Assembly (NCBI GenBank): GCA_051382295.1
Contig: JBBCAW010000012.1
Coordinates: 161,983-225,982 of the forward strand
From: Bdellovibrionota bacterium FG-1
GTDB lineage: Bacteria; Bdellovibrionota; UBA1018
Length of the DNA: 64,000 bases
Direction of reading: 5' to 3'
Shown: positions 4,930 through 15,914 of the stretch, piece after piece
Numbering within the stretch: the first letter of the stretch is position 1
How the letters are laid out: every line of letters begins with the position of its first letter
Notes under the pieces: model-generated
Databases searched by the model: none
Told to the model about the DNA's origin: nothing
What the model saw: the letters and a program-made list of their open reading frames with translations, nothing else
Made by a program: the position numbers and the translations under genes

Positions 4930-5471
4930 TTAGTGCTGAGGCAAAGCTGGAGCTTTCTGCGGCGCCAGTTTGCCGTTGAGACTATTTAGAAAGGCGACAA
5001 TGTCTTTCACTTCCTGCTCTACCAAGTGGTGGTCGGGCATTCCCATTTCAACAGGGTTGACTATCGGGCCTTTGGCTTGCTCTTCGAGGCTCGGTGCGCG
5101 TCCGTCCCAAAATTGCACAGACCGAAACGCGGCATTGAGAACCGTTGGCGAATTGCGACCGCCCAGCTTTCCTTCGTGCCCGGTGGAGAGGGGTTTTCCA
5201 TCTGTTCCCCCCGTGGATGAAGTCACATCATGACAATAATTACATGAAAGCGATTGATTAACAGAAAGACGCTTCTCAAAAAAAGTTTGTGTCCGAGTGC
5301 CACTTTTTCAGGCGTCAAAGGATTATCCGCCGGACTGGGCACCTGCGTCGGAAACAGAACGCGAATACCTTGCATCTCGGTTTGGGCGGGAGCCGTCAGC
5401 GCATTGAGCAATCCAGTGACGACTACAAAAGCAAGGCAATACGGCCGATAGCAAGTGTTCGTGAAGGTCAT
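4930..5471 (-). pseudogene. Cytochrome c peroxidase (MauG/CcpA family), frameshifted and internally deleted
   Basis: DNPLTPEKVALGHKLF; adding one base to the 7-nt homopolymer at 5278-5284 restores LFFEKRLSVNQSLSCNYCHD...RNSPTVLNAA...QFWDGRAPSLEEQAKGP, which jumps straight to the C-terminal IVAFLNSL with the second heme domain absent. Confidence 0.85.
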
Positions 5472-6489: not shown

Positions 6490-8046
6490 CTACCAATTGC
6501 CCAATTCGGTGGGTGACGGCGTGACCCAAAGAGCGGATCCTGAACTGGATTTTCGAAATTCAATCCAGGGTGATTGAATACCTTCAGTCTGCGATCGAGG
6601 AATTGCCGCCCATTTTTCGGCTTCGGGATTTAAAAGGAGAATGTCGTCAGGGTTTTGACGAAAAGCGTGGCCTGCTTGAAATGCAGGAAGGGTGAGAGGG
6701 TCCATTGGACAAAGCACCACAAAGTGTCCGTTGGGGTGAATCATCAGACGGCCTCTGTCGGGGACAAGGTCAGTCACCCACTCAGGCAGGGGGGGCCAAG
6801 CTTTTGGACCGGCCGGAGTGAGGCCATCTGTGTTGTCCGTCGGAATCTGCAAACTGCGCGAATACCGCAAAAGCACGGCGCTATTGAGCGAAGGCTTTTG
6901 AGCCTTCATCAGCGCGAGGGTTCCGGCGAGCAAAGCGCTAGCCGTGGATGAACCTCTGACCGTGGTACCATTCGAAAACGAAACCACTGAAGCATCGATG
7001 ACGACATCGGGTTTGATTCGACCGTCTGCAGTCATTCCACGAGAGGAGATAGTAAAATCCTCCCCCACAGTTAATACGTTTGGATTATCCGCTGGGGCAA
7101 AGATTTCGGCTGAGGACGTGGGATTCGTTAGCGTCGCAGAACCCGGTTGGCGGGGTTCAAGAAGAACTCGAAATCGGTCGTTTGCTTCAAAGTTGCCTGA
7201 CTTATCCTGAACAGAAATGCGGTAGGTGCCTCGTTCCAAGCTTTGTAACGTGAGCGACTCGCGGGCGTAGCTCGATAACGACGAAGTACCGGAAGCGGGG
7301 GGAGCTTCGCCTCTTTGAATGAGCTCTGATTTTGCTACAACTTTATTTTGGCTATCGTAGACATACAGGTCGAGGTCTTTATTGGTGCTGTAATTTTCGG
7401 AGGCGCGAAAATCGGTCCAGCTGAGGGTAATAGTGATTTCGTTTTCATCTAGAGTGTTTTTGAATTCAATGTCAGTGTTTGGAGCGATCTTTGCCTCGTG
7501 GACCATCTCGCCAAAATTACCTGCGGCATTAATCCAGACGACGCCCGCTTGAGTCGCTTTGTTGACCGCTTCGTTGATAAAACCCGTGCCATCAAAATTA
7601 CTTCCGAAAGGCCAAACTTGGGCATAGAGGACGATATCGATGTGTTCTTGGAGAACAAAATCGACTGCAGCCTTAAAGTTGGTAAATCCATTGGTGTTGA
7701 CGAGGTAAAAGTGTGGGCCTTCGGGGTGCTTGCCCGTCATTGCCCAAACGATTTCGGCCATTCCAAGTCCGTGATTGCTGGGCGCCTGAGCGTTTCCTGG
7801 GCCAGCGACAAAAATCGCCGACTCTGGAAGTTGTCCTTTTCCAGAGTCAAAACCAGAAAAGCCATTATCTAATATCGCAATCTTCAGGGCTGAGAGCGAA
7901 GAGGGTGGGGGTGTGTAGAGCTGCAGCCCTAACTGTTCCCTTAAATGGGCGATGTTGGTGATTTCAGTTGCACCATGAGCATCGGGCAGTCCCACACACG
8001 ACAAGACCCCAAAAACGAAAGAAAGAATCGGATAGCGAAACATCAT
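6490..8046 (-). CDS. Secreted S8 (subtilisin-like) serine peptidase
   Basis: Triad IAILDNGF / HGLGMA / GSSTAS, oxyanion AAGN, GRIKPDV, inserted PPC-like beta domain (DLDLYVYD); signal peptide. Confidence 0.88.
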   Translation of the reverse strand: MMFRYPILSFVFGVLSCVGLPDAHGATEITNIAHLREQLGLQLYTPPPSSLSALKIAILDNGFSGFDSGKGQLPESAIFVAGPGNAQAPSNHGLGMAEIVWAMTGKHPEGPHFYLVNTNGFTNFKAAVDFVLQEHIDIVLYAQVWPFGSNFDGTGFINEAVNKATQAGVVWINAAGNFGEMVHEAKIAPNTDIEFKNTLDENEITITLSWTDFRASENYSTNKDLDLYVYDSQNKVVAKSELIQRGEAPPASGTSSLSSYARESLTLQSLERGTYRISVQDKSGNFEANDRFRVLLEPRQPGSATLTNPTSSAEIFAPADNPNVLTVGEDFTISSRGMTADGRIKPDVVIDASVVSFSNGTTVRGSSTASALLAGTLALMKAQKPSLNSAVLLRYSRSLQIPTDNTDGLTPAGPKAWPPLPEWVTDLVPDRGRLMIHPNGHFVVLCPMDPLTLPAFQAGHAFRQNPDDILLLNPEAEKWAAIPRSQTEGIQSPWIEFRKSSSGSALWVTPSPTELGNW

Positions 8047-8102
8047 TGAGCACCCCAGATGGGGAGTAGATAGCTCTAATGACTTGTTGCGTCAAGACAA
8101 AA

Positions 8103-8531
8103 TCAATACCAGTAATAGTAGTAGTAGCTATAGCCTCGGGAGTACCAGCTGTAAGAGGGGTAGTAATTCCAAGTGTAGCCGGCTCTCCAGTAACTGTAAT
8201 AATAGCTGCCGATGTAGGATGGAGCGTACCAATAGTACCAAGCTTCGCTCGACGAGCTGCGATCAAGTTCGCTGGAAGGTGCGACTTTTGCGATCCGGTT
8301 CTCATCTTTGGCAAATTGGGTTGCCGCTTCGGAGGCCTGGGCGTCACTGTTCACTTTTGCCGATACATCAGCTTTAAAAAACTCGACCGTGCCGCTGGCG
8401 TCTTTGCGAACCACTAGCCCATGAGGGGCTGCGGCACTGGTGCGATCCAATTCACTACTGGCAAATACTGATGCAGCTCCCAAGGTTGAGAGGATGAACA
8501 TCGTCAAAGTTCCAATTTTAGTCAGGCTCAT
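8103..8531 (-). CDS. Secreted precursor-like protein with a Tyr/Trp-rich C-terminal tail (142 aa)
   Basis: GAAGGAG RBS before ATG 8531; Sec signal ending VFA; SSELDR occurs twice; last 45 aa contain 20 Tyr and 6 Trp. Confidence 0.85.
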   Translation of the reverse strand: MSLTKIGTLTMFILSTLGAASVFASSELDRTSAAAPHGLVVRKDASGTVEFFKADVSAKVNSDAQASEAATQFAKDENRIAKVAPSSELDRSSSSEAWYYWYAPSYIGSYYYSYWRAGYTWNYYPSYSWYSRGYSYYYYYWY

Positions 8532-8692
8532 GGTAACAACTCCTTCAAAATAGGCACCCAAAAGTGTCTAGAAATATTCAATGAGCACTCGATAATATGT
8601 TTGGCAGCATTTGGCAAGTAAAACGAAATAGCGCAACGCGTCAATTTAAGGAAAGTTGCTTTTGTACGGCGATTGAGTCATCTTCACTGACG

Positions 8693-9766
8693 ATGCCGAA
8701 TCAGCCGAAAATCAAACTGTTTCGTCAGGACGGGTGCCTGTCCTATTTTATTTTTGATCCGGGCTCGCGAGAGCTGATGGTGATCGATGCGCGCGCCGAT
8801 TTGATGGAATCCTATCGGACCGTGATTGCTGAAGACCGTCTTAAGCCCGTGTACTTTGTAGACACAAGACTTCACTCTCATCACCTTTCGGGAACCCATC
8901 TTTTGGCCGCTGAATTTGGCGCGCCCATTGCCATGGGGGCGAAAACGAAGTCGGCTCGGCCGACCAGGTTATGGGTCGATCGCGAGAAGATTCGCTTGGG
9001 CGAATATGAATTGGAAGTCATCGAGTTGCCGGGCATTTCTGCTGACGCCATTGGGTTGTTTTTGAATTCGCAGATTCTTTTTTGTGGAGACGCAGTCCAT
9101 CTTGGGGCGTCTGCCCGGCTGGACTTGTCCGGGACGGATCCTGCTGCGTTTTGGCATACTTTGAAAAAGGGAGTCGGCTCACTTCCCGAAGAGACCCTTT
9201 TGATGCCCGCGCATGAGGCGGATGGCCGGATATTTTCCACGATAAAAATGGAGAAAGAAAAAAATCCAGACTGGAAGATGGCTGATTTGGAAGCCTTTTT
9301 ACGATTTAAGGCCGAGGAGCGTGGCAGGTTGGATGGCGCAATTCAGAATCGCATCGATTACAATTTGCAAAAAATGCCCCTAGAAACCCAAGAAAGCCAT
9401 TTTGGCGGAGTGGCCAATCATGTGGGGAATGGGGAAAATGGAAATCGGGTCGCCACGATCAGCGTGGATAAATTAGCGCAAAAGCTGAAGAAACAATCTT
9501 CTGGGGTTTGTTATTTGGATGTTCGCGAACCGAGCGAATATGCGGAGGGGCATATTGAAGGGACTCTTCATATTCCGCTTGCGGAGGTGGCCCTTCATCT
9601 TGAGGAGCTTCGGTCTTTGTGTCGCATTTATGTGATCTGTCGAAGTGGTCGACGAAGCGAGGCCATTGCGAAAACCCTGGATTATCTTGGATTTCCAGAT
9701 GTGGTGAATGTCACGGGCGGAATTCAGGCCTGGGAAAACGCCGGGTATCAGCTTAAGACAAAGTAG
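8693..9766 (+). CDS. MBL-fold (persulfide dioxygenase-like) domain fused to rhodanese; MBL metal site degenerate
   Basis: GCLSYFI, DTRLHSHHLSG, FCGDA, PAHE; C-terminal LDVREPSEY...GHIEG...CRSGRRS...GGIQAW. Confidence 0.85.
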   Translation: MPNQPKIKLFRQDGCLSYFIFDPGSRELMVIDARADLMESYRTVIAEDRLKPVYFVDTRLHSHHLSGTHLLAAEFGAPIAMGAKTKSARPTRLWVDREKIRLGEYELEVIELPGISADAIGLFLNSQILFCGDAVHLGASARLDLSGTDPAAFWHTLKKGVGSLPEETLLMPAHEADGRIFSTIKMEKEKNPDWKMADLEAFLRFKAEERGRLDGAIQNRIDYNLQKMPLETQESHFGGVANHVGNGENGNRVATISVDKLAQKLKKQSSGVCYLDVREPSEYAEGHIEGTLHIPLAEVALHLEELRSLCRIYVICRSGRRSEAIAKTLDYLGFPDVVNVTGGIQAWENAGYQLKTK

Positions 9767-9996: not shown

Positions 9997-12003
9997 GTGT
10001 TGAATTCAAAAGGGCCGCGGATTTTCGGAGAATTGCTCGGTACGGTCTTAAAAACAATTTTTGGCGTGTTGGCCGCCTTATTAACCTCGGTCATTATCCA
10101 GGAAATTTTTATTTACCCGGCTTTTTCCGCGGGCGAAAGTCATTGTACTTCGTTGGGCTCGCCCGGCCCAAAAAAGTTATCCTTTTGCGTGGATGAGGAA
10201 GAGCAGACCGCGATCGAAAAAGAGATCGCCGATTGCGGCGGTGATGTTCATCGATTTGTCGCGCAGATGGAGATTCACGCTAAGGCCGCAAAATTGGCTT
10301 ATTCGGACGCGCTCAAAAATATGGATCCGACCGTGCGCGCGGCCGTGGCCTTTGCTTGTCGGGGGTTTGAGCATAAAGACTTGATGCTTCGGACTTCATG
10401 TTATCGAGATGCGCTCGACGCGATGGAAGAAGATGCGGAGAAAGTGCAGCAGATGTACTTTTCGTCCGATCCTTCTGATGCGGTTGCGGCAGAGAATCTT
10501 TTGAATGAACTTCGGACGCCGGATGTGTTGGGAAATAGTCATTTTATGGGAACGATCATCGCTGAGCAGTGTGGGATCACCCATCCTGAAAATGATTGCT
10601 TCGATTATAACGTCAGTGCGCTTTATCACCAATTGATCGATGCCTATAATCAGATGTCCGCATCGGCTGATTCGATGGCCCAGTGGAGTGTCTTGAGCGC
10701 CAGATGTGGCGAAAAATTGGGCACAGAAGTTTGTAACTCGACTCGTCCTTTTGGAGTCGGTGATTTTGTTCCGGCCAATGCGGATGAAATTAGATATGCC
10801 CCTCGTTATGCTCTGCCGGGGCTTCATGGGGTTTTTAATTCACCTGTTCGTGTGCAAAAGAAAGAGCCGCGAGTTTATGGAACCGAAGAAAAAACTCGGA
10901 CAAAATCTAAGAAAACAAAAAAAGCTAAAAACTTATCGAAGAAACAAGAGGAGATGAACGCCGGTAATTCGGGTACTCCAGGCAAAAAAGCCCCCCCCAA
11001 AAAGAAGACCAAAGCGAAAGTTGTGGCACCCAAAGTTACGTCGCCTAAAGCCACCACGCCTAAAAAACCGGCCAATGGAGTCAAGGGAACTCCGACTGTC
11101 AAACCGACCGCAGCGCCCATAGCACCGACCGCAGCGCCCATAGCACCGACCGCAGCGCCCATAGCACCGACCGCAGCGCCCATAGCACCGACCGCAGCGC
11201 CCATAGCACCGACCGCAGCGCCCATAGCACCGACCGCAGCGCCCATAGCACCGACCGCAGCGCCCATAGCACCGACCGCAGCGCCCATAGCACCGACCGC
11301 AGCGCCCATAGCACCGACCGCAGCGCCCGTAGCACCGACTGCGGCGCCCATAGCACCGACTGCGGCGCCCATAGCACCAACTGCGGCACCCGTAGCACCA
11401 ACACCCAATGTAGGTGGCACGGCCCTGGGGACAGAACCCGGTAAACAGGGGATAGGCTTGGGGATGGGGGATATGGCGAACGAGCCGAAACTGGATTGTT
11501 CGGAGTCTGGAATTGAAAAATATCGCGACGAGACACGACTTGACCCACGAATGGGCATTGTTTTTCAGGCAAGAATATTGGCCGCGCAAGAAAAACTCTA
11601 TGCTTGCGATGTGCGCACTCTTTATTCAGATGTTCCTCAGGCCGTGTTTTTGGCGCGTCAAGGTATGCGCCTGGTCAGGATCGCTGAAAGTCTCACCAAA
11701 TTTACTACTCTGTGTGGTGTGGTTAGTCAGGAATTGACTGGCATGGCTTCGGATTTAGAGAAATTGCAAAGCGTGGCGCCTTCGACTGAATTAACTGCCT
11801 TTGCTCAAGATCTCTTGGATATCAAGAGTAAGGGCTGTGACGGGGTGAATGTCTTGATTGATGACAACAACCCAGAAGGTCTAGCGCTGCAACGTAAGTA
11901 TCAGCGGGATTTTTGTGCCTTCAAGAGATCGATTGAACAGACTAAGCCTGGGGCGACGAGTGGAATCTCGGGCTATTTATTGCCGAGAGGTGGCTGTCGG
12001 TAG
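9997..12003 (+). CDS. Large Cys-rich exported hypothetical protein with a Lys-rich linker and PTAAPIA tandem repeat
   Basis: 668-aa ORF, N-terminal hydrophobic segment, two Cys-containing globular regions; no family recognised. Confidence 0.75.
   Translation: MLNSKGPRIFGELLGTVLKTIFGVLAALLTSVIIQEIFIYPAFSAGESHCTSLGSPGPKKLSFCVDEEEQTAIEKEIADCGGDVHRFVAQMEIHAKAAKLAYSDALKNMDPTVRAAVAFACRGFEHKDLMLRTSCYRDALDAMEEDAEKVQQMYFSSDPSDAVAAENLLNELRTPDVLGNSHFMGTIIAEQCGITHPENDCFDYNVSALYHQLIDAYNQMSASADSMAQWSVLSARCGEKLGTEVCNSTRPFGVGDFVPANADEIRYAPRYALPGLHGVFNSPVRVQKKEPRVYGTEEKTRTKSKKTKKAKNLSKKQEEMNAGNSGTPGKKAPPKKKTKAKVVAPKVTSPKATTPKKPANGVKGTPTVKPTAAPIAPTAAPIAPTAAPIAPTAAPIAPTAAPIAPTAAPIAPTAAPIAPTAAPIAPTAAPIAPTAAPIAPTAAPVAPTAAPIAPTAAPIAPTAAPVAPTPNVGGTALGTEPGKQGIGLGMGDMANEPKLDCSESGIEKYRDETRLDPRMGIVFQARILAAQEKLYACDVRTLYSDVPQAVFLARQGMRLVRIAESLTKFTTLCGVVSQELTGMASDLEKLQSVAPSTELTAFAQDLLDIKSKGCDGVNVLIDDNNPEGLALQRKYQRDFCAFKRSIEQTKPGATSGISGYLLPRGGCR
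11104..11397 (+). repeat. 21-bp coding tandem repeat x14 (CCGACCGCAGCGCCCATAGCA = PTAAPIA)
   Basis: 10 identical units followed by 4 variant units. Confidence 0.97.
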
Positions 12004-15799: not shown

Positions 15800-15884
15800 A
15801 AACCAAACCAAACCAAACCAAACCAAACCAAACCAAACCAAACCAAACCAAACCAAACCAAACCAAACCAAACCAAACCAAACC
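15800..15884 (+). repeat. Perfect pentanucleotide microsatellite (AAACC)17
   Basis: 85 bp uninterrupted. Confidence 0.98.
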
Positions 15885-15914
15885 CGCGAGACCCAGGAAT
15901 TCCGAAGTCTTTGA

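Follow-up and report, generated by a model that had tools for sequence, protein, structure and literature searches.

A conserved gene pair encoding an aromatic-tailed precursor and a propeptide-less subtilase in Bdellovibrionota and Planctomycetes

Introduction

Why is a small secreted protein with a tail rich in tyrosine and tryptophan encoded directly upstream of a secreted subtilase? The two genes lie in a 64,000-nucleotide stretch of Bdellovibrionota bacterium FG-1 (assembly GCA_051382295.1, contig JBBCAW010000012.1, positions 161,983 to 225,982 of the forward strand), which we call the window and whose numbering we use throughout. We report that they belong to a precursor-protease module that is real, widespread and apparently undescribed. 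Chances are about even that this conserved module works by convertase release of an aromatic core, followed by β-sheet self-assembly of that core at the envelope. Our search of the open literature, which left closed-access papers and preprint supplements outside its range, returned no description of the pair.

Results

A precursor gene with an aromatic tail precedes a subtilase gene

Reading along the minus strand, the gene order is a 142-amino-acid (aa) open reading frame (ORF), a 56-nt gap, an S8 gene, 42 nt and an MltB-like gene. The 142-aa product consists of a signal peptide, SSELD, a 55-residue middle, SSELDRSSSSEA and a 45-residue tail. SSELDR occurs twice, at E27 and E88, and the tail (W98-Y142) contains 20 Tyr and 6 Trp, with no Asp, Glu or Cys. 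These points, like the co-oriented S8 gene 56 nt downstream with an intact D/H/S triad, had been recorded in a preliminary description made from the sequence alone, and our analysis bore them out. The features of the precursor gene are as follows.

8540..8546, minus strand: Shine-Dalgarno-like GAAGGAG, 8 nt upstream of the precursor ATG
8103..8531, minus strand: precursor gene, 142 aa, with signal, acidic pro-region and aromatic core
8460..8531, minus strand: predicted Sec signal peptide, residues 1-24, ending V-F-A (placed by eye and by the homologues' conserved A-x-A|x-ELD)
8445..8453, minus strand: first ELD motif, E27-D29, adjoining the predicted signal peptidase site; putative docking motif
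8277..8426, minus strand: predicted β-β-α-β pro-domain, about residues 36-85 (AlphaFold2 predicted local distance difference test, pLDDT, 80-95)
8241..8270, minus strand: recognition box E88-L-D-x-x-[ST]-[SP]-x-x-[AS]97, with predicted scissile bond A97|W98
8106..8240, minus strand: core W98-Y142, 45 aa, four predicted β-strands, the patterned hairpin last

The aromatic tail is not a chance product, because its last 45 residues hold 26 Tyr plus Trp, while the next best of 41,019 six-frame stop-to-stop frames of at least 50 aa in the same genome holds 11. Neither tblastn nor a motif scan found a paralogue in this genome. The family comprises 302 relatives after clustering at 50% identity and, as the preliminary description had supposed, it matches no described one: no Pfam or NCBIfam family covers the window protein or the sets of 150 and 13 proteins searched after it. 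An ESM Atlas search with the precursor returned only unnamed clusters below 0.9, fold searches with its model gave nothing clear (best Z 3.8; no Foldseek match at E ≤ 0.001), and sequence searches of the PDB gave 0 matches and 1 chance match.

Precursor and protease genes occur together across Bdellovibrionota

In a first set of 60 relatives, the precursor was present in nine, the protease in nine and both in eight; the ninth protease has a diverged precursor directly upstream. We then searched 301 Bdellovibrionota genomes with precursor and protease profiles that were built independently. The precursor matched in 69 genomes and the protease in 81, and 68 of the 69 precursor-positive genomes carry the S8 gene, as expected from the linkage proposed earlier. 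The precursor lies directly upstream and co-oriented in 54 of these genomes and within 3 kb in 65. Among the 13 protease-only genomes, 10 have a diverged precursor directly upstream, two reach contig ends at this point, and one (67% complete) has none.

We also parsed 160 protease loci, the best 80 of 495 from GTDB and the best 80 of 373 from metagenomes, some of them near-duplicates. An upstream ORF with both the motif and an aromatic core was found in 92 and the tail only in 11; a further 21 had less than 1 kb of upstream sequence and one was unparsed. When the same rule was applied to the minus strand of all 160 loci, it gave seven matches, of which six are true head-to-head precursors. The closest tree neighbours of the window protease are Bdellovibrionota metagenome-assembled genomes.

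Some loci depart from the simple pair. In G044 (L015:8455-10416), an ordinary second S8 and an opposite-strand ORF stand between the precursor and the dedicated S8, and in six genomes of one family (G153, G175, G186, G206, G234, G237) a tandem second S8 copy follows the first. G046 encodes, some 3 kb beyond the pair (L018:3079-3786, minus strand), a lipoprotein whose middle domain is similar and whose Gly/Tyr tail is long; it is probably a diverged precursor paralogue without ELD. In one subclade (L029:3058-3621, L030, L032, L106, L107), the S8 and an opposite-strand precursor flank a conserved 187-aa lipoprotein, which ends in Q-W-Q-W and has no NCBIfam match.

The motif, the junction and the core are conserved

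The first ELD follows directly behind the predicted signal peptidase site in 114 of 149 representatives. After the second E-[LMFI]-D come exactly seven residues and then Trp or Tyr in 136 of 156 proteins, so the boundary predicted in the preliminary description is conserved with fixed spacing. In the leaders of these 136, position +6 is Ser in 112 and the last residue is Ser or Ala in 129; at the position of Trp98, 145 of 150 Bdellovibrionota precursors have Trp. In the most diverged Bdellovibrionota forms, the ELD decays and the small-residue|W/C junction is mostly kept.

Across the junction, the median charge is -5 in the pro-region and +2 in the core. The 136 cores are 27-129 aa long and contain 40% Tyr, 11% Gly, 9% Trp and 1.8% aliphatic residues. 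Acidic residues are absent from 119; Cys occurs in 100, exactly once in 87, so the absence of Cys that had been noted describes the window core and not the family. Nor is the tail hypervariable, as had been anticipated: in Bdellovibrionota its C-terminal 25 residues keep G-Y-x-Y-x-Y-x-P-x-Y-x-Y...G-Y-x-Y, a hairpin pattern in which alternating Tyr residues surround a central Pro. [GS]Y[GS] is found at twice the shuffled count, with Tyr residues on an alternating face. The ends are also patterned, with Arg among the last three residues in 72 of 136 cores (17 when shuffled), a terminal Trp in 62 (13.5 when shuffled) and an aromatic-x-aromatic end in 67 (39 when shuffled).

The protease lacks a propeptide and its pocket suggests a cut after Ala97

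The S8 protein comprises a signal, a catalytic domain that follows without a propeptide and is split by an all-β insert, and a small C-terminal domain. Its features are as follows.

6490..8046, minus strand: S8 subtilase, 518 aa (Pfam Peptidase_S8, E 4.8e-8)
7867..7869, minus strand: catalytic Asp60 (100/100 homologues)
7771..7773, minus strand: catalytic His92 (100/100 homologues)
7516..7518, minus strand: oxyanion Asn177 (97/100 homologues)
7117..7503, minus strand: all-β insert, about residues 182-310, PPC-like / Csp jelly-roll-like
7099..7101, minus strand: Phe316, on the S1-pocket floor by alignment to subtilisin position 166
6946..6948, minus strand: catalytic Ser367 (100/100 homologues)

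The model of the protein (pLDDT 93.5) is a subtilisin fold interrupted by the insert, with 264 Foldseek matches at E ≤ 0.001, the best of them clostridial Csp proteins (E 3e-16 to 1e-13). For most of 100 homologues, the distance from the start to the catalytic Asp is about 50-65 residues (range 22-119, the long distances coming partly from over-called gene starts). Five distant outgroup S8s have pro-regions, and their catalytic Asp is about 150-180 residues in. As judged from these distances, the clade is without an N-terminal propeptide between the signal and the catalytic domain.

A bulky residue at subtilisin position 166 favours a small P1 residue. The residue aligned to this position is Met, Phe, Leu or Tyr in 95 of 100 homologues and in 113 of 122 locus proteins, and according to PMC3378952 position 166 forms the S1-pocket floor. 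Bulk at the S1 floor and the conserved Ala/Ser therefore predict a cut at A97|W98, which lends independent support to the cut after ...SSSEA put forward in the preliminary description. We consider that the precursor is probably cleaved by the S8 protease and, given cleavage, that the cut likely falls after Ala/Ser rather than after Trp.

Arg262, Arg293 and Lys345 are near-invariant, and the first two lie within the all-β insert; the three residues are candidates for ELD binding and the insert is a candidate exosite. Co-folding S8 residues 26-518 with precursor residues 24-112, a check that had been recommended, gave a score of 0.41 compared with 0.00 for the best of three controls. This is a weak pass: of 157 solved complexes, 116 attain the mark, as do 2 of 215 mismatches, and passing scores of 0.60 or below came from only 18 of the 157 solved complexes plus both mismatches. 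The runs agreed on at least 27% of contacts, with a partner pLDDT of at least 43, and yielded no interface.

A Planctomycete branch carries the pair with a different pro-region

Gemmatales and Isosphaerales carry the pair, including Singulisphaera acidiphila DSM 18658 (L086). Among 201 Planctomycetia genomes, protease and leader matched in the same 19, adjacent in 18, with one protease broken; because the leader profile derives from ORFs that precede S8 matches, the informative part of this result is the 182 double negatives. When 251 genomes were sampled evenly over the Planctomycete phylum, the true clade appeared only in the centre genome, together with seven distant S8s. Among the genomes searched, the system is therefore limited to part of a single class.

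The Planctomycete proteases form one branch (Shimodaira-Hasegawa-like approximate likelihood ratio test, SH-aLRT, 100) with two mislabelled-looking rows inside, and this branch joins a Bdellovibrionota-like subclade (SH-aLRT 99) in a quick, midpoint-rooted tree of the 69 of 81 rows with a parsed catalytic region. A single transfer between the phyla is plausible on this topology.

In the Planctomycete precursors, a low-complexity Pro/Ala/Thr/Ser linker of 21-49 aa between the ELD motifs replaces the pro-domain. This does not support a folded pro-domain as an essential solubility chaperone, the role suggested by the preliminary description. The E and D of the first motif are invariant in 33 leaders and the last leader residue is Ala or Ser in 31 of 33; the residue after it varies (W, H, C, Y, G, A, F). 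The cores are 55-198 aa long with 41% Gly and 17% Tyr; 29 of 33 end in Trp (2.8 when shuffled), and 19 of 33 carry a Cys no more than two residues from the end.

Lipoprotein signals appear on precursors and proteases of the same clade

All three genomes tested from the main clade of unlinked proteases carry precursors elsewhere. The protease often has no neighbouring precursor in an Oligoflexales-like clade, three genomes of which hold four, two (plus one false match) and one precursors elsewhere, and all seven of these precursors have a lipobox. A lipobox is also present in 9 of 15 S8s of this clade, compared with 0 of 53 others. The lipobox on both unlinked partners therefore indicates that precursor and protease switch to membrane anchoring together, and having several precursors for one protease makes them resemble substrates more than a private chaperone.

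At L207, L209 and L204, the precursors are lipoproteins in which long Gly/Gln/Tyr or Gln/Pro repeats carry on from the aromatic core. Tails like those of the repeat-extended precursors are also seen on neighbouring lipoproteins (L220:1576-2310 and L222:1-824).

No third gene recurs beside the pair

ORF clustering over the 160 loci gave recurrent neighbours that are clade-local only. No recurring tailoring enzyme, transporter or immunity gene was found among the neighbours, in line with the earlier remark that no tailoring enzymes are visible. The transglycosylase, also remarked on earlier, is indeed present in the window as an SLT_2/MltB-like gene 42 nt beyond the S8 gene; we rejected it as a third gene of the system, as there is no homologue near 170 related loci. 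We likewise rejected di-tyrosine or 3,4-dihydroxyphenylalanine (DOPA) tailoring by a linked enzyme, as no linked oxidase recurs among the 160 loci; an enzyme encoded elsewhere could still act on the core.

The predator Bdellovibrio bacteriovorus HD100 expresses its pair during growth

A 132-aa protein labelled Bdellovibrio bacteriovorus HD100 hypothetical protein (P0288) is a family member. In the accessible part of PMC3627812, Bd0450 is 399 nt (132 aa) long and adjoins the S8 gene Bd0449; by length, annotation and adjacency, Bd0450/Bd0449 is the HD100 pair. It is the same gene pair as in the window, annotated only as hypothetical protein and putative protease, and Bd0450 differs from the window precursor in core and pro-domain sequences. 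According to the same source, both genes are growth-phase specific, rising from 0.8 to 198 reads per kilobase per million mapped reads (RPKM) for Bd0450 and from 0.8 to 66 for Bd0449, which puts the precursor transcript 3-fold above that of the protease.

In the searchable data of PMC12546842, Bd0449 is represented by 20 peptides, and the protein peaks at 3 h and then falls; the log2 fold of 0.86 at the peak is below the two-fold bar of that study. Bd0449 was also detected in host-independent culture supernatant (PMC3898049, Table 2, the part available). As far as their main texts could be searched, PMC3627812, PMC12546842 and PMC3898049 do not discuss the pair, and none of the HD100 tags searched occurs within the transposon-sequencing supplements of PMC6561027.

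Discussion

A model for core release and assembly

A model that would accommodate these results is that both products are exported via their own signals and that the propeptide-less subtilase serves as a dedicated convertase of the precursor. The protease would bind the precursor through the acidic ELD motifs and cleave it behind Ala97, freeing the 45-residue Trp...Tyr core. The acidic pro-region would keep the core soluble until cleavage, and the freed core would then self-associate as β-sheet material on the envelope surface. Taken alone, self-assembly as the role of the core falls slightly short of an even bet. The Tyr face and low charge of the core would suit self-assembly better than killing, as would its conserved pattern and the Gly/Tyr variants with expandable repeats.

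More tentatively, and with the odds somewhat against it, the pair may represent a convertase-gated material system in which ELD-read pro-peptides release Tyr/Trp/Gly-rich cores that form fibre, glue or coat. Such a system would need no tailoring enzyme or dedicated pore, would act during late prey-internal growth, and would have passed once to Gemmatales/Isosphaerales. By analogy, and just as tentatively, it might be a bacterial counterpart of the pro-proteins from which animals make structural and adhesive peptides.

Several observations weigh against release of a self-assembling core. One genome (G031, 83% complete) has a precursor and no S8 match, and 35 of the 160 S8 loci have at least 1 kb of upstream sequence and no co-oriented precursor by our rule (five of them have a precursor on the opposite strand). 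The genomes are kin, so the linkage counts throughout are not independent and we attach no p-value weight to them. The near-invariant Trp98 would also fit an arrangement in which Trp is P1 and Ala/Ser is P2. No secretion pore or nucleator gene recurs among the neighbours of the 160 loci. Bd0450 is absent from the searchable proteome tables of PMC12546842, and this absence, together with its modest transcript (198 RPKM), sits badly with a bulk coat. Finally, cleavage and fibre formation stand as predictions; what was observed is the anatomy of the genes, their linkage in both phyla, the motif with its spacing, the triad, the missing propeptide and the matched lipoprotein signals.

Alternative roles for the precursor

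The small protein could instead be a separately encoded propeptide, a foldase or inhibitor of a protease that has lost its own; the protease would then have a general role, for example in digesting prey or leaving it, and the tail would be an anchor or timer. Unlike the outgroup S8s, this protease has no pro-region, and the predicted β-β-α-β fold, which ends in an acidic triplet some residues ahead of a small one, is reminiscent of the C-terminal half of I9 propeptides. The presence of Bd0449 in host-independent supernatant (PMC3898049, Table 2, the part available) and its 3 h peak (PMC12546842, searchable data) would fit general work as well. We nevertheless consider this reading unlikely: Inhibitor_I9 matched 0 of 150 members, hhalign against the five outgroup pro-regions gave a probability of 0.3%, Planctomycete precursors have no folded domain, some genomes have three to four scattered precursors for the single protease found, and a patterned aromatic tail of 45-200 aa would be needless.

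A second possibility, which we hold to be quite unlikely, is that the core is a membrane-active or antimicrobial β-hairpin peptide, used in prey exit or competitor killing and kept harmless by the acidic pro-region. The acidic pro-region and basic core, the late Arg and the terminal Trp fit such a peptide, as does HD100 expression late in intraperiplasmic growth, and the logic is that of the polychaete BRICHOS-linked hairpin peptides (PMC6265681, in the part available). Yet the net charge is just +2 and aliphatic residues are nearly absent; the conserved pattern and mostly single copy are unlike arms-race variation, and no immunity gene recurs among the neighbours of the 160 loci. The Planctomycete cores are Gly-rich repeats of 55-198 aa; moreover, Planctomycetes are not known to be periplasmic predators, which also counts against this reading.

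The core could also be handed to the β-barrel assembly machinery (BAM) via its terminal aromatic residue and form an oligomeric β-structure in the outer membrane, or mimic the β-signal against prey BamA. The enrichment of terminal Trp in both phyla and of aromatic-x-aromatic ends would fit this. However, the β-signal G-X-X-aromatic-X-aromatic (PMC13067283, section 2.5, the part available) is found in 1 of 136 cores (4.0 when shuffled) and 2 of 33 Planctomycete cores (1.4 when shuffled), and an aliphatic content of 1.8% is unlike transmembrane strands, making this idea improbable. That the precursor is left uncut at the junction, the intact protein having a structural role at the surface or in the periplasm and being bound, or trimmed elsewhere, by the S8, is very improbable: lipoprotein forms could remain tethered and junction cleavage is itself a prediction, but the fixed-spacing motif and small-residue junction survive even loss of the pro-domain, and the triad is intact in 100 of 100 homologues.

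Relation to described systems

Release of a core by a dedicated convertase has partial parallels. The S8 leader peptidases LanP (lanthipeptides) and PatA/PatG (cyanobactins) are dedicated subtilases encoded beside leader-core precursors. The likeness extends to a short acidic recognition box, whereas here the precursor has its own Sec or lipoprotein signal and the core is aromatic and 27-198 aa long. The linked LanB/C/M-type enzyme and transporter of lanthipeptide LanP systems do not recur in the 160 loci. The cyanobactin precursor is cytoplasmic and has a follower, while here there is a signal peptide and the core runs to the stop; PatG-style macrocyclisation was rejected, as no follower peptide lies behind the core. 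Double-glycine bacteriocins have a GG/GA junction, a C39 ATP-binding cassette (ABC) transporter and no Sec signal, unlike the x-[AS]|W junction described here, and no C39 ABC transporter is among the recurring neighbours of the 160 loci. Similarly, curli and Fap functional amyloids have linked pore, nucleator and chaperone genes, none of which recurs at these loci.

Clostridial Csp subtilases (CspB, CspC, CspA) share the interruption of the subtilase by a jelly-roll. They keep a prodomain and act in spore germination; their identity to the window S8 is about 15%, and the clade described here has no prodomain. Polychaete arenicin and nicomicin prepropeptides are BRICHOS-linked and are cut by subtilisin-like convertases, according to the accessible part of PMC6265681. 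They resemble the precursor in having a signal, an acidic pro-region, a subtilisin-like convertase and an aggregation-prone C-terminal peptide, and differ in that our system is bacterial, lacks a BRICHOS domain and a dibasic site, and has a linked protease gene. Gly/Tyr-rich structural and adhesive proteins include insect chorion, suckerins, mussel foot proteins and sulfur globule proteins. Here the likeness is compositional only (rich in Gly/Tyr/Trp, poor in acidic residues, with length-variable repeats), as we found no homology with Pfam or NCBIfam and no linked oxidase.

The pair provides a likely substrate and cleavage rule for Bd0449, a protease still uncharacterised in the model predator B. 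bacteriovorus HD100, and it can be tested in genetically tractable or cultured hosts, namely HD100 and Singulisphaera acidiphila. It also defines a family of more than 300 sequence clusters that has no Pfam or NCBIfam model, and the protease may be a narrow-specificity, propeptide-independent subtilase. If the core self-assembles, the module would be a new way for bacteria to make functional aromatic materials, with a protease switch built in; a membrane-active core would instead be a new peptide class from predators.

Other features of the window

A promoter and terminator scan gave chance-level results only. Divergent from the pair, at 8597-9766 (plus strand), is a metallo-β-lactamase-fold and rhodanese fusion that is persulfide dioxygenase-like and not conserved beside the precursor-S8 pair. 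A 668-aa ORF at 9997-12003 (plus strand) has a long PTAAPIA tandem run and no Pfam or NCBIfam match. In G029 (L016), the gene immediately before the pair is a homologue that lacks much of the repeat, and a Nif3-like gene follows both the 668-aa ORF and this homologue. Between ORFs at 15800-15885 is a 5-base tandem repeat, one minus-strand frame of which reads (NQTKP)n. By eye, two short frames at 4930-5471 (minus strand) resemble pieces of a cytochrome c peroxidase-type gene that is apparently split or partly deleted.

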